Positions 33,627 through 63,928 of a DNA stretch of 64,000 bases are shown piece by piece. The stretch's first letter is position 1, and each line of letters begins with the position of its first letter. The translations under genes were made by a program, and so were the position numbers. The DNA comes from Acidobacteria bacterium RIFCSPLOWO2_12_FULL_68_19 (GTDB taxonomy: Bacteria > Acidobacteriota > Vicinamibacteria > Vicinamibacterales > UBA2999), in the NCBI GenBank assembly GCA_001767525.1, contig MELF01000045.1:41277-105276 (forward strand), read 5' to 3'. The notes under the pieces are model-generated. The model saw only the letters and a program-made list of their open reading frames with translations, was not told the origin of the DNA and searched no databases.

Positions 33627-34709
33627 TTGAGGGCTTCCAATTCCGACCACCGCGCCGCCCAGGTGCTCGGGGCGATCTTCGACTCAGCCGTCGACGGCAT
33701 CATCGTCATCGACGCGAATGGCCGACTCGAGGCGTTCAACCCGGCGGCCGAGCGTCTCTTCGGCTATCGGGAATCCGAGGTCATCGGGCGCAACGTGTCC
33801 ATGCTCATGCCCTCGCCCTACCGGGACGAGCACGACGGCTATATTGGCCGCTACCTGGAGACCGGCGAGGCCAGGATCATCGGCGTCGGGCGAGAAGTGC
33901 ACGCCCTTCGCCGTGACGGGACAACCTTCCCGGTGCACCTGGCGGTTGGCGAGATGACCGTCGACGGAGAGCGCAAGTTCACCGGCATCGTTCACGACCT
34001 GAGCGCGCGCGTGCGGATGGAAGAGCAGTTGCGCGAGCAGGCGGCGCTCGTGCGGCTCGGCGAAATGGCCGCCGTCATAGCGCACGAGATCAAGAACCCG
34101 CTGGCCGGCATCCGCGGCGCCGTGCAGGTGATCGGTTCTCGGCTCGCCTCCGGCAGCCGAGAGGCGTCGGTCACCGACGAGATCGTCGCACGGATCGACG
34201 CGCTGAACGCGCTGATTCGTGACCTGCTGCTGTTTGCCCGCCCGCCCCAGCCGAGGCCGGCGCTCGTCGAGGTGCTCTCGGTGGTGGCGACGACGATCGA
34301 TCTGCTGCGCGACGATCCGACGGTCGCCGGCGTGGACATCGAACTCGAGGGCACGTCGCCGCCGGTGCTGGCCGATCCGGAGCTGTTGAAGATCGTCTTC
34401 CAGAACCTGCTCATCAACAGCGCTGAGGCGATGCACGGGCGCGGCCGCATTCGGATCGTCGCAGGAACGACCGGCGCCGGCTGCGAGGTGAGGTTCCTCG
34501 ACAGCGGGCCGGGCATTCCCGCGGAGATCCGCGACAAGGTGTTCGCGCCGTTCTTCACCACGAAGGCGCGGGGAACCGGACTCGGTCTGGCGACGGCCAG
34601 GCGGCTCATCGAAGCGCATCGGGGATTCATCCGTATCGACGTTCCGCCTGGCGGCGGCACCGCGATCACTGTGCACCTCCCACTGGCTGGCGCGGGTACC
34701 GCGGTGTGA
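33627..34709 (+). CDS. FixL-like heme-PAS sensor histidine kinase (HisKA type)
   Basis: NVSMLMPSPYRDEHDGYIGRYLETGEARIIGVGREVHALRRDGTTFPVHLAVGEM...FTGIVHDLS closely parallels the rhizobial FixL heme-PAS. It is followed by the H-box LGEMAAVIAHEIKNPL and an HATPase domain (GTGLGLA). TTG start. Confidence 0.85.
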   Translation: MRASNSDHRAAQVLGAIFDSAVDGIIVIDANGRLEAFNPAAERLFGYRESEVIGRNVSMLMPSPYRDEHDGYIGRYLETGEARIIGVGREVHALRRDGTTFPVHLAVGEMTVDGERKFTGIVHDLSARVRMEEQLREQAALVRLGEMAAVIAHEIKNPLAGIRGAVQVIGSRLASGSREASVTDEIVARIDALNALIRDLLLFARPPQPRPALVEVLSVVATTIDLLRDDPTVAGVDIELEGTSPPVLADPELLKIVFQNLLINSAEAMHGRGRIRIVAGTTGAGCEVRFLDSGPGIPAEIRDKVFAPFFTTKARGTGLGLATARRLIEAHRGFIRIDVPPGGGTAITVHLPLAGAGTAV

Positions 34710-34745
34710 TGGGTTGGACCGCTTCTTGAAAGACACCCTGCGGCG

Positions 34746-35171
34746 GTGTCCGACGTGGTCACGACCCAGCCTTCTCATCTCCGCGTCCTCGTTGTCGAGG
34801 ACGAGTCGCTCATTCGCTGGTCGATTGCCGAGACGCTCGCCGAGCACGGCCATTCGGTCGTCGAGGCCAGCAGCGCCGCGTCGGCCGTTCAGGCCGTCAA
34901 CGAGGCGTCCAGGCCCATCGACGTCGTGCTGCTCGACCTGCGGTTGCCGGATTCCAGCACGCTCGATCTGCTGGCCGACATCCGGCGCCTCACGCCGGAG
35001 AGCGCTGTCCTGATGATGACCGCCTGCGGCACGCCGGAAGTCGCCCGCCACGCGCTGGAGCTTGGCGCGTACCGCGTCCTCGACAAACCGTTCGACCTGC
35101 ACGCCCTCGAACACCTCGTGGTCGAAGCGCACAACGCGTACGGCCCGCCCCCAGTCGCACGTCCCCATTGA
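34746..35171 (+). CDS. single-domain response regulator (receiver only)
   Basis: 141 aa. LRVLVVEDESLIR...DVVLLDLRLPD...MMTA...VLDKPF. No output domain. Confidence 0.85.
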   Translation: MSDVVTTQPSHLRVLVVEDESLIRWSIAETLAEHGHSVVEASSAASAVQAVNEASRPIDVVLLDLRLPDSSTLDLLADIRRLTPESAVLMMTACGTPEVARHALELGAYRVLDKPFDLHALEHLVVEAHNAYGPPPVARPH

Positions 35172-35262
35172 CCGCTGGAAATTCCCCACGCCCCCCTCGG
35201 AGCCCGCATTTGCGGCCGTCTCGCGAGCGTCTTGCAATCGAGCATTTGGCCGGTCGGGACCA

Positions 35263-61924: not shown

Positions 61925-61937
61925 GTGAACGTCCGCC

Positions 61938-62357
61938 TCACATGCTCCCACGGTTGGGCGCCTGGTGGGCCTTGACGGCGCCCCGCTGCCGCCGCGCGAA
62001 GTCCTGCAGCCTGCGCCGCGCCGCGTCGAAGGCCTCGCGAATGGCGACCTCGGCGTACTTGTGCACCGCCTCGAGCTCATCGTCTTTGTGGTGGGTCTCC
62101 TCCTGGACGTCCTCCAGGACGCCGTGCGTGGTCGGCTCGTGTCCGACGATGACGTCCTCACCCGGGAGCGACAGCTCGATCCGGACGCCCACGTGCCGCC
62201 CGTGCCCCCGATGGCGATGCGGGACGTCGACGAGGACGCGACAGCCGACGATGCCGGGATAGAACGTCTCCAGCCGGGCGACGCGGGCCTGAATGAGCGC
62301 CTCCAGCCGCGCGTTGGGCCGCATGTTGCGGAACGTAGTGCGTACTGGCGTGGTCAT
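61938..62357 (-). CDS. HPF/RaiA-family ribosome-associated (hibernation factor-like) protein
   Basis: 139 aa. VRTTFRNMRPNARLEALIQARVARLETFYPGIVGCRVLVDVPHRH...VGVRIELSLPG...AIREAFDAARRRLQDFARRQRG matches the short HPF-like family. Confidence 0.65.
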   Translation of the reverse strand: MTTPVRTTFRNMRPNARLEALIQARVARLETFYPGIVGCRVLVDVPHRHRGHGRHVGVRIELSLPGEDVIVGHEPTTHGVLEDVQEETHHKDDELEAVHKYAEVAIREAFDAARRRLQDFARRQRGAVKAHQAPNRGSM

Positions 62358-63928
62358 GACGCTGCTCCCTTCCCGATGGTCTCCATCCGTTCGACCGTTC
62401 GAACGAGCGCGGCGCGTCCGACCCGATCGACGCTGTCCGACGCGTCGATCCGCTCCCAGTCGAGCGGCGGCGTCGCGCGCGCGTGTTGCTGGTGAAGTAC
62501 CGCTGCGGTCGCATCGGAGGCGTCACCACGCCGCGCCGCCAGGCGCGCTTCCATGACGCCAAGCGGCGCCTCGAGCCAGAGACCGACGAAGGGGACGCCC
62601 TCGTCGGCAGCCGCCCGGCGGATCGACCTGCGCTGTGTCTCAGTGGGGAAGACCGCATCGACGATGGCGACGTACCCGGCGCGGGCGACCTCGCGGGCCG
62701 AGTGGACGAGCTCCTCGTAGACGGCGGCGCTCACGGGAGCGCGGTACGCGGTGTCCGGGAGGCGTTCGCTCGGCTCGACGCCGTAGCGGCGTTTTCGGAC
62801 CAGGTCGCTTCGCAGGACGACGGCGCCCGGCGCCAGCCCGATCTCCGGCGCCAGGCGGCGGGCGAGCGTCGACTTCCCGGACCCGGAGAGACCTCCAATG
62901 GCGACGATCGCGCCCGTGCCCGGCGCGATCAGCGCGAGCGCGCGATCCATGTACGCGGTCGCCTCGTGCTGCAGCGGCGCGACCCGTGCGGGCGTCTCGA
63001 CCGCCGCCGCGGCGGCAAGCGACACCTTGGCCCGGATGGCTGCCCGGCACGAGAGGAACAGCGGGAGGAGCGGCAGCGCCTCGTACTGCGGCAGCCGGTC
63101 GAGCCAGGCGTTGAGCGCCGCGTTGGCGTGCGCGGGCAGACGGCGGTGCAGCAGATCCATGACCAGGAACGCGAGGTCGTAGAGCACGTCGACGCACGAC
63201 AGCTCGTCGTTGAACTCGATGCAGTCGAAGAGCACCGGCCGGCCGCTCGCGAGGAAGGCGTTGCCGAGGTGCAGGTCGCCGTGGCACTCGCGAACCCAGC
63301 CGGTCTCCCGGCGCGCGTCGAGCAGATGGGCGCACCGCGTCAGCGCCTGCTGCGAAGCCTCGTGGAGACGCGCCCGGGCCGGCTGCGCGACCAGAGGGCC
63401 CGCGGCGGAGAGTTCTGCGTCGTTGCCTTCGACGACCCAGTGCATCCCGGCCGCCCCGCCGTGGTCGGGCCTCGGCGCTGCGGCGGCGTGGAGCGCCGCG
63501 GCGGCCGCACCAATCCCGGCTGCGGCGTCGACGGTGATCTCACCGCGACGTGCGACGGCGTCGAGGAGCCGGTCCTGGTCGAATCGGCGCATCTCGACCA
63601 GCCATTCGATCGGCGTGCCAGTGCCGCCGATGGCCAGTACGCCGGTGTCCGACCGCGTGACCGGCGTGACGCCAACGTAGATGTCCGGCGCCGTGCGGCG
63701 GTTGAGCCGGACCTCCTTGTCGCAGCACTCCTTCCGCGCCTCCAGCGTCGAGTAGTCCACGTACGGAAAGTGCACGTCTCGTTTCAGCTTCAACGCGCGA
63801 GCGCCCGCGAGGAAGACGACGCTGATATGGGTCTCGACGCGATCGACACGGCCGCAGTCGGAACCGTACGCGGCCGGCGTGGTCAGGAACGCGATCACGT
63901 CGTGCTGGGTGACGTGGGGAGCCGCCAT
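62354..63928 (-). CDS. bifunctional aminoglycoside-phosphotransferase-like / P-loop ATP-binding protein
   Basis: 524 aa. An APH-like kinase core (HGDLHLGNAF...FDCIEF) plus a C-terminal P-loop GGLSGSGKSTLA. The stop overlaps the HPF-like start (ATGA). Confidence 0.75.
   Translation of the reverse strand: MAAPHVTQHDVIAFLTTPAAYGSDCGRVDRVETHISVVFLAGARALKLKRDVHFPYVDYSTLEARKECCDKEVRLNRRTAPDIYVGVTPVTRSDTGVLAIGGTGTPIEWLVEMRRFDQDRLLDAVARRGEITVDAAAGIGAAAAALHAAAAPRPDHGGAAGMHWVVEGNDAELSAAGPLVAQPARARLHEASQQALTRCAHLLDARRETGWVRECHGDLHLGNAFLASGRPVLFDCIEFNDELSCVDVLYDLAFLVMDLLHRRLPAHANAALNAWLDRLPQYEALPLLPLFLSCRAAIRAKVSLAAAAAVETPARVAPLQHEATAYMDRALALIAPGTGAIVAIGGLSGSGKSTLARRLAPEIGLAPGAVVLRSDLVRKRRYGVEPSERLPDTAYRAPVSAAVYEELVHSAREVARAGYVAIVDAVFPTETQRRSIRRAAADEGVPFVGLWLEAPLGVMEARLAARRGDASDATAAVLHQQHARATPPLDWERIDASDSVDRVGRAALVRTVERMETIGKGAAS

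Follow-up and report, generated by a model that had tools for sequence, protein, structure and literature searches.

The 64,000-nucleotide stretch analysed here (the window; positions 41,277 to 105,276 of contig MELF01000045.1 from Acidobacteria bacterium RIFCSPLOWO2_12_FULL_68_19) contains a cluster of stress genes together with two FixL-type sensor kinases. The cluster appears to hold genes for survival under low oxygen or energy limitation in a Vicinamibacteria-like, uncultured acidobacterium of soil or an aquifer, and from its sequence we lean slightly towards the view that it is wired as a sigma-54 regulon, unlike either the DevR/DosR regulon of Mycobacterium tuberculosis or the lxa locus of Burkholderia cenocepacia. 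Promoter elements of the -24/-12 type and a palindrome shared by the upstream regions are both conserved in relatives, and the genes therefore probably form a sigma-54 regulon whose enhancer-binding protein is encoded outside the window. Since the window has a GC content of about 70%, genes were called from third-position GC (GC3) and frame plots, and the calls were tested against Pfam, NCBIfam and PDB sequences. These searches recovered every item of a gene list that an earlier note had drawn up for the region at 33.6-63.9 kb. The nearest homologs of the window proteins carry Acidobacteria/Vicinamibacterales annotation.

The strict promoter element, GG-N8-TTGC[AT], was scanned in the cluster and in three further acidobacterial loci for which gene calls were available. 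Among 37 matches, 19 lie on the same strand as a start codon and at most 120 nt upstream of it, a space that makes up 5.8% of the total searched (binomial p = 2e-14). Spacers of N4-N7 and N9-N12 gave 0-6 upstream matches, and six permuted -12 cores gave 0-3. The geometry, GG-N10-GC with a TTGCW -12 box, is exactly that of sigma-54 promoters. The elements are found 13-85 nt before the start codons of about ten transcription units. With slight relaxation these units comprise YgaP-TonB, Haem_bd, the universal stress protein (USP), OsmC-unknown-AP_endonuc_2, ABC1, CBS, two small open reading frames (ORFs), Hsp20, APH/AAA_33-HPF-FDH (FDH, formate dehydrogenase), the hydrogenase side and an ATPase pseudogene. 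In a distant locus from Terriglobia (L009; loci from other genomes carry L numbers), one element each is present at USP, TonB, CBS-APH/AAA_33, GroEL and a cold-shock gene (CSD).

The second component is a palindrome upstream of these elements. A motif search by mismatch counts was swamped by the GC-rich background, and likelihood-based expectation maximization (EM) was used in its place. The most over-represented non-coding words are GGGAATT/AATTCCC and AAGAAT; the former pair occurs 7 times in non-coding DNA and 0 times in 52 kb of coding DNA. Unsupervised EM returned a top motif close to CGGGAAWWWTTCCGCG in 10-12 of 15 intergenic regions of the cluster. Applied to the 145 nt upstream of 26 sigma-54-like promoters, it again gave an imperfect palindrome, CGCGGAA-N2-3-TTCCGCG (GSGRAA-N2-3-TTYCSC). 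This palindrome is located 36-120 nt upstream of the -24 element at all nine window promoters, at 6-7 of 7 promoters in L007, at 2-3 of 5 in L090 and at 1-2 of 5 in L009.

The top-scoring motif site, TGGGAAATATTCCGCG (33592-33614, + strand), is followed by a -10-like TAAGCT and precedes the genes for the kinase HK1 (33627-34709, +) and the receiver protein REC1 (34746-35171, +). The motif and GGTAAGCTA are kept in three genomes while the flanks diverge. No -24/-12 element was found upstream of HK1-REC1; in all three genomes the motif there abuts the conserved TAAGCT. Repression or modulation of a sigma-70-type promoter by the same protein would be expected to give such an arrangement. The adjacent YgaP-TonB operon (35306-36664, +) starts with a YgaP-like small membrane protein, followed by a TonB_C protein (35575-36297, +) and a Met/His-rich secreted protein (36332-36664, +), in an order that is kept in L174 and L175. 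Its motif site, GGGGAATTTCCAGCGG (35172-35187, -), is partly conserved in these two loci. Within its -24/-12 element, TGGCCGCACCCTTGCA (35264-35279, +), the blocks TGGCCG and CCCTTGCA are identical in the window, L174 and L175; the two bases between them vary and the surrounding spacer has diverged. The Haem_bd protein (PF14376, E = 8e-32; 36988-37476, +) is preceded by the motif site CGGGAATTCTTCCGCG (36887-36902, +) and the element AGGCATCGCGCTTGCT (36963-36978, +).

The tandem USP (41168-42049, +; two Pfam Usp stretches, E = 2e-59) shares a divergent control region with GroEL (40837-41142). This region holds three motif sites, at 40837, 41049 and 41070, of which the second and third are spaced by 21 nt; a relaxed -24/-12 element for USP, TGGCATGGCACGTGCG, follows at 41127 (+). 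The operon of an OsmC-like protein, a 478-aa ORF (48731-50167) and an AP_endonuc_2 protein (47926-50703 including control sites, -) has a motif site at 50688-50703 (-) and the element AGGCAAAGGACTTGCG at 50620-50635 (-). For the ABC1/UbiB-type kinase (52048-53739, +), motif sites at 51930 and 51950 (+) precede TGGCACTGCCGTTGCC (52014-52029, +). The gene for the CBS-pair protein (54071-54556, +) again has two motif sites 21 nt apart, at 53936 and 53957 (+), upstream of TGGTGACGGCTTTGCA (54033-54048, +); in an alignment with L007 the motif block and TGGTGACGGCTTTGCA are the best-conserved parts. Two small ORFs of 93 and 80 aa (within 54698-55353, -) have the near-perfect palindrome GTCGGGAATTCCCCGAC (55335-55353, -), which is located beside the kinase-regulator pair HK2-RR2, and the -24/-12-like element GGGTGAAGGGCTTGCG (55289-55304, -). 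The palindrome GGGAAATTCCC is also present in L012, between the homolog of the 80-aa ORF and the HK2-like gene.

At Hsp20 (58689-59219, +), the motif site (58521-58536, +) and the element AGGAACGGCTGTTGCT (58607-58622, +) are both kept in the alignment with L007. The bifunctional APH + AAA_33 protein (62354-63928, -) heads an operon with an S30AE/HPF-like protein (61938-62357, -; 38.7 bits against a cutoff of 23.7, with a single solved HPF matched among PDB sequences) and a formate dehydrogenase alpha subunit (FDH; 59255-61924, -; TIGR01591, 763 bits, above cutoff). Its element, CGGATCGCGCATTGCA (63953-63968, -), has the counterpart GGATCGCACATTGCA in L007, and its motif site (position 15363 of L001) falls at the equivalent of window position 64051, immediately outside the window. 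A divergent element, CGGAATGCCGTTTGCT (63976-63991, +), faces the [NiFe] hydrogenase/hyp operon past the window end. The back-to-back pair of elements by the APH/AAA_33 gene is common to L007 (8962-9065) and the window (63929-64153). On its far side L007 has a V-type ATPase operon where the window has the [NiFe] hydrogenase.

Several observations weigh against a sigma-54 regulon. The -24/-12 count over the whole window equals chance (13 against about 13 in shuffles), and only the placement is non-random. The palindrome is degenerate with variable central spacing; allowing one mismatch, its strict consensus shows a modest enrichment (7 against 1.8 expected), and most sigma-54-like promoters of the distant L009 have a weak copy or none. 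A high-scoring copy, CGGGAATTCTTCGCGG (47891-47906), is located between the convergent genes for glutamate dehydrogenase (GDH) and AP_endonuc_2, where no promoter is expected. Neither element nor motif was found for GroEL-DsrE-SQR, arcC-rocD, GDH or HK2-RR2. The first of these units (37532-40773, -), without a strict -24/-12 element, consists of an SQR-like flavoprotein (37532-38737), DsrE (38752-39105) and an orphan GroEL with no adjoining groES (39142-40773). The 42240-47882 stretch (+), where both signals are missing from carbamate kinase to GDH, continues with an ornithine-oxo-acid transaminase, a 465-aa ORF (44388-45785), a 130-aa ORF (46069-46461) and GDH (46473-47882). Sigma-54 holoenzyme requires an AAA+ enhancer-binding protein (PMC4987338). 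No Sigma54_activat protein or rpoN was found in the window, in the 10 kb to its right or in those related loci that were examined, and the search for an enhancer-binding protein was also negative beside HK1-REC1 in two other genomes and in the first 33 kb.

Both kinases are predicted to bind heme and are FixL-type heme-PAS sensors by sequence. The PAS domain of HK1 (Pfam PAS-HisKA-HATPase, with an NtrB/ZraS-type core) matches the FixL heme domain with E = 3e-35 and its core matches ZraS with E = 5e-39 in the PDB search. HK2 (55442-56974, +; 510 aa) combines a FixL-type heme PAS with HisKA_3 and HATPase domains, and its PAS matches BjFixL and RmFixL with E = 5.8e-39 and 2.4e-37. The proximal His and two Arg residues of FixL are aligned in the heme-PAS domains of both kinases; in HK2, where these residues align with BjFixL, HDGYIARY and GGGRE are paired with HDSYISRY and GIGR. 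By sequence, the claim that a FixL-like PAS-heme replaces a GAF-heme thus holds for both kinases. HK2 has PAS domains and no GAF domain (Pfam), and it resembles DosT and DevS in the ATP-binding domain only (E = 1e-10 and 9e-9). Orthologs of HK1 are 85% and 67% identical in L174 and L175 and have the same context.

No FixJ-type cognate regulator was found: the partner of HK1 is a receiver only, and RR2 is far closer to DevR than to FixJ. REC1 is a stand-alone NtrC-type receiver (Pfam Response_reg only). It has more than 1000 homologs at E<=1e-8, and the 120 listed are all REC-only proteins of 121-159 aa (mostly 128-137). A truncated NtrC is therefore ruled out, since REC1 belongs to a large receiver-only family. 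RR2 (56990-57682, +) is a REC-GerE regulator of the NarL family. Its best PDB match is DevR (3C3W; E = 1.6e-34, 122.7 bits), ahead of NarL (5.6e-27, 98 bits), with FixJ weak (1.3e-6); it reached no NCBIfam equivalog cutoff. The RR2 subfamily spans Verrucomicrobia, Planctomycetes, Spirochaetes, Proteobacteria and Acidobacteria (RR2-centred loci L010-L089), and it shows a near-invariant recognition helix, LSxKTVETHRAHIKEKL, a conserved C-terminal A-x-Q/x-W tail and, usually, an adjoining HisKA_3 kinase. The HK2-RR2 pair is kept in L010-L013 and L019. In the four genomes where RR2 has its nearest relatives, the kinase is fused to a long N-terminal extension; the HK2 counterparts in L010, L011 and L012 form the C-terminal part of far longer ORFs, of 1459 aa in L012 (5562-9941). 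When 61 HK-RR operons of the subfamily were compared upstream of their start for an RR2 operator, an A/T-rich block shared by closely related Udaeobacter genomes dominated the result, and no operator could be deduced. RR2 and the convergent YkuD L,D-transpeptidase gene (57633-58454, -), which adjoins Hsp20 in L007 too, overlap by 50 nt at their 3' ends (57633-57682).

The earlier note had seen in these genes a parallel to the DevR/DosR regulon. The M. tuberculosis counterparts that it named are indeed DevR-regulon members (PMC3177182). The parallel stands at the domain level, where a NarL-family regulator, a HisKA_3 kinase, a tandem USP, Hsp20, a CBS pair, a P2-type ATPase, S30AE and APH+AAA_33 overlap, but not at the promoters, which are sigma-54-like and without a Dev box; GGGACN4GTCCC with one mismatch has 4 matches against 5.9 expected in the window, none of them at promoters of the cluster. 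The USP and CBS proteins match the proposed counterparts Rv2623 and Rv2626c, but with E = 7e-7 and 3e-11 and in neither case as the best match. The DosR regulon further differs from the cluster in sensing through GAF heme domains (tandem GAF in DevS/DosT) as opposed to PAS domains of the FixL type, and in its nitroreductases, Tgs1, NarK2/NarX and FdxA, all of which the cluster lacks. A further likeness is that relatives of the cluster add a ribonucleotide reductase and a protein with PRTase and erythromycin-esterase domains, which we take to resemble NrdZ and Rv2030c.

A regulatory version of this parallel would have RR2, phosphorylated by HK2, bind GGGAA-N-TTCCC boxes and activate transcription as DevR does, the -24/-12 look-alikes being incidental. 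DevR is the best solved relative of RR2, and the box, a palindrome that contains GGG and has A/T at its centre, is like a Dev box in form. The tandem boxes 21 nt apart at USP and CBS echo the helically phased tandem Dev boxes (PMC3177182), so that both systems have tandem recognition sites in helical phase. Autoregulation would fit the near-perfect palindrome beside HK2-RR2 and the similar one in the L012 locus, which lacks other genes of the cluster. The -24/-12 elements, however, pass tests of spacing, permutation, orientation and conservation, and a GerE-type regulator such as RR2 is unable to replace an AAA+ activator and to open sigma-54 complexes. The sigma-54-like promoters with their shared upstream site therefore make a NarL-type regulator unlikely as the direct activator. 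Most boxes are located 85-125 nt from the inferred starts and not at -42. The recognition helix of RR2 reads SAKTIETH; compared with the EKTVKNY that we take to be the DosR helix, with K179, K182 and N183 contacting bases, it differs at two of these three positions and keeps the first Lys. In addition, linkage between the regulator pair and the stress genes is missing where RR2 has its nearest relatives: four genomes with 75-78% identity keep the HK2-RR2 pair, but none of the stress genes of the cluster is found within 10 kb of it. We regard direct activation by RR2 as unlikely.

A second alternative is that there is no common regulon, the stress genes being neighbours by chance or co-inheritance under separate controls, and the motifs being by-products of the higher A/T content of intergenic DNA. 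A motif finder will always report something, the whole-window element count is at chance, and gene order varies greatly among genomes. Few families of the cluster were met in 40 more distant metagenomic APH/AAA_33 loci with 40-50% identity (Hsp20 in 5, CBS in 2, USP in 1). In contrast, the spacer and permutation controls drew on the same intergenic DNA, and of the patterns tried GG-N8-TTGC[AT] alone is enriched. Cross-genome alignments are best conserved at the elements, and the distance between motif and -24 element stays within a constant range. We consider it quite improbable that a common regulon is lacking. Control by a Crp/Fnr regulator acting on TTGA-N6-TCAA boxes downstream of the FixL-like kinases, as in FixLJ-FixK/Anr systems, would suit the FixL-type sensors and the Crp/Fnr regulators that accompany similar gene sets in the lxa locus (PMC3721108) and on the rhizobial plasmid pRL9, but it is very improbable, since no Crp/Fnr gene was found in the window (Pfam) and 15 of 15 relaxed FNR-box matches lie inside coding sequence, with none at promoters of the cluster.

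Under the sigma-54 reading, a single enhancer-binding ATPase encoded elsewhere in the genome would bind the palindrome and switch on the whole set together. It would also feed back on HK1-REC1, as NtrC does on glnA and glnL. The oxygen signal would enter via the heme-PAS kinases HK1 and HK2, and the DevR-like HK2-RR2 pair may form a second branch, parallel or upstream. A more specific proposal is a 'split NtrC', in which HK1 phosphorylates REC1 and REC1 controls, in trans, a receiver-less enhancer-binding ATPase; this ATPase would bind the palindrome and fire about ten promoters (USP, Hsp20, CBS, HPF, APH/AAA_33, FDH, hydrogenase and others). We put this forward tentatively and rate its chances as low. 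If true, the same survival genes would have been wired independently in a third way, besides DosR and FNR/FixK.

The closest analogy to such a circuit is the NtrB-NtrC/sigma-54 system. In both, -24/-12 promoters are accompanied by palindromes that lie about 80-130 nt before the start, and a further site overlaps a sigma-70-type promoter of the kinase operon, as at glnL. The core of HK1 is of the NtrB/ZraS type and REC1 is an NtrC-type receiver. The differences are that REC1 has no AAA+ or DNA-binding domain and no enhancer-binding protein is encoded nearby, that the sensor is a heme-PAS protein, and that the output is a stress and persistence gene set. The rhizobial FixL-FixJ/FxkR-FixK systems share the FixL-type heme-PAS sensing. 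Their FixK regulons have FixK-type boxes, whereas here HK2 has a HisKA_3 core and RR2 is nearer to DevR than to FixJ.

The earlier note had suggested convergent assembly of a hypoxia/persistence programme. This idea is not new: it was anticipated by the description of the low-oxygen-activated (lxa) locus, a region of about 50 kb with 50 genes and one motif at 17 intergenic points, which Sass et al. (2013, PMC3721108) explicitly set against the DosR regulon, gene by gene. The lxa locus contains six USPs, an alpha-crystallin, BON proteins, a cation ATPase, a ribonucleotide reductase and two two-component systems (PMC3721108). FixLJ has been proposed as its oxygen sensor, and a 2025 review aligns FixLJ/Lxa, Anr and DosRS (PMC12071387). 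Like lxa, the cluster described here spans tens of kb of chromosome, in this case about 30 kb and its flanks. Both combine USPs, an alpha-crystallin and a cation ATPase with TonB-related and transport genes, have two-component systems embedded among them and repeat one motif at many intergenic positions. In lxa, however, the motif is an FNR/Anr-like TGA-N6-TCA with Crp-family regulators, as opposed to GSGRAA-N2-3-TTYCSC with -24/-12 promoters. The two loci also belong to different phyla. Part of the same set recurs in Alphaproteobacteria, as judged from the Rhizobium johnstonii plasmid pRL9 (L176, 24047-53555), which encodes an APH+AAA_33 homolog (44% identity), an orphan groL (66% to the window GroEL), two tandem USPs, a BON protein, adhP and rsgA; genes for a Crp/Fnr regulator and a response regulator lie alongside, as does hemN. 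NCBI names plasmid homologs of the APH+AAA_33 protein 'bifunctional aminoglycoside phosphotransferase/ATP-binding protein'.

The stress genes travel together across Acidobacteria, while the DevR-like pair is not syntenic with them in its closest relatives. Related loci were found around homologs of the APH+AAA_33 gene in other Acidobacteria. L007 holds Hsp20, BON, YkuD, PRTase, ribonucleotide reductase, CBS and ABC1, and its identities to window proteins are 74-90%. L009 carries a tandem USP, TonB, CBS, an orphan GroEL (71% identity), PRTase+erythromycin-esterase, DLH and a cold-shock protein; L090 a PAS kinase, USP, an FDH-like gene and PRTase+esterase; and a further acidobacterial contig GroEL, a YgaP-like protein, Hsp20, several CBS proteins and USP. 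The grouping reported in the earlier note is therefore not scattered within the phylum, although gene order is fluid.

The region is a native chromosomal cluster. Its GC content is 0.68-0.72, and GC and GC3 match those of the housekeeping genes in the flank at 1-33 kb, among them, at 1-16 kb, EF-P, thymidine kinase, UvrC and HtrA; no tRNA flanks the cluster and no Rfam family was found in the window. A foreign, acquired island is therefore ruled out. The '30-kb island' of the earlier note, which had suggested a comparison of GC skew and codon usage with the core genome, is thus real as a gene cluster but not distinct in composition, and the coordinates given do not bound it. The right edge is open, with an uptake [NiFe] hydrogenase and hyp operon directly after 64000. 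On the left side are PK-like, MgtC-like and DUF2383 genes, whose synteny with HK1-REC1 is kept in other Acidobacteria. The motif recurs as a palindrome that scores on both strands, CGGGAAATAGTTCGCG (22100-22115), about 35 nt upstream of the DUF2383 gene (21514-22065, -), and the arrangement DHO_dh-DUF2383 ... HK1-REC1 recurs in L174; the regulon may therefore extend leftwards. A 343-aa ORF (32538-33569) without a Pfam or NCBIfam match is kept directly upstream of HK1 in L174. The 465-aa and 478-aa ORFs of the cluster are likewise well supported and without a match in these databases.

The MITEs (miniature inverted-repeat transposable elements) and the P-type ATPase pseudogene that the earlier note mentioned were both found. 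A MITE-like family with inverted ends close to GCCYGGATTATTCAGGAA has three copies (19254-19384, 45849-46075 and about 51010-51255), the last of which interrupts the ATPase. This P2-type cation ATPase pseudogene (+; Pfam E1-E2_ATPase and Cation_ATPase_C) is left as fragments at 50852-51019, 51245-51544 and 51672-51971; the second bears the DKTGT motif, and the third corresponds to Cation_ATPase_C, which indicates the P2 subclass. The copy at 45849-46075 abuts the 130-aa ORF, which has no family match and whose sequence we take to resemble the C-terminal end of a Lon-type protease. About 19 head-to-tail 8-nt units (GGTGCGAG / GGTGCGAT) begin at the stop codon of the ABC1 kinase (53729-53882), upstream of the CBS control region.

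Low-oxygen loci that resemble the DosR regulon have already been published from outside Actinobacteria, and Acidobacteria are a new phylum for such a locus; our literature search turned up no account of a stress regulon, DosR-like or under sigma-54, in Acidobacteria. What sets this locus apart is the presence of two FixL-type kinases in one cluster and its apparent control by sigma-54 and a new palindrome, not by FNR or Dev boxes. Acidobacteria are among the most abundant soil bacteria and are hard to grow, and their persistence under oxygen or energy limitation is little understood. The promoter and operator predictions are concrete and testable in cultured Vicinamibacteria. If the genes are a sigma-54 regulon fed by heme oxygen sensors, one toolkit of USPs, a small heat-shock protein, CBS proteins, a ribosome hibernation factor, an APH/P-loop protein, an orphan GroEL and a hydrogenase would be under at least three controls across phyla: DosR boxes, FNR/FixK boxes and sigma-54 enhancers. 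This would point to a widely shared, modular pool of persistence genes and not to a mycobacterial speciality.

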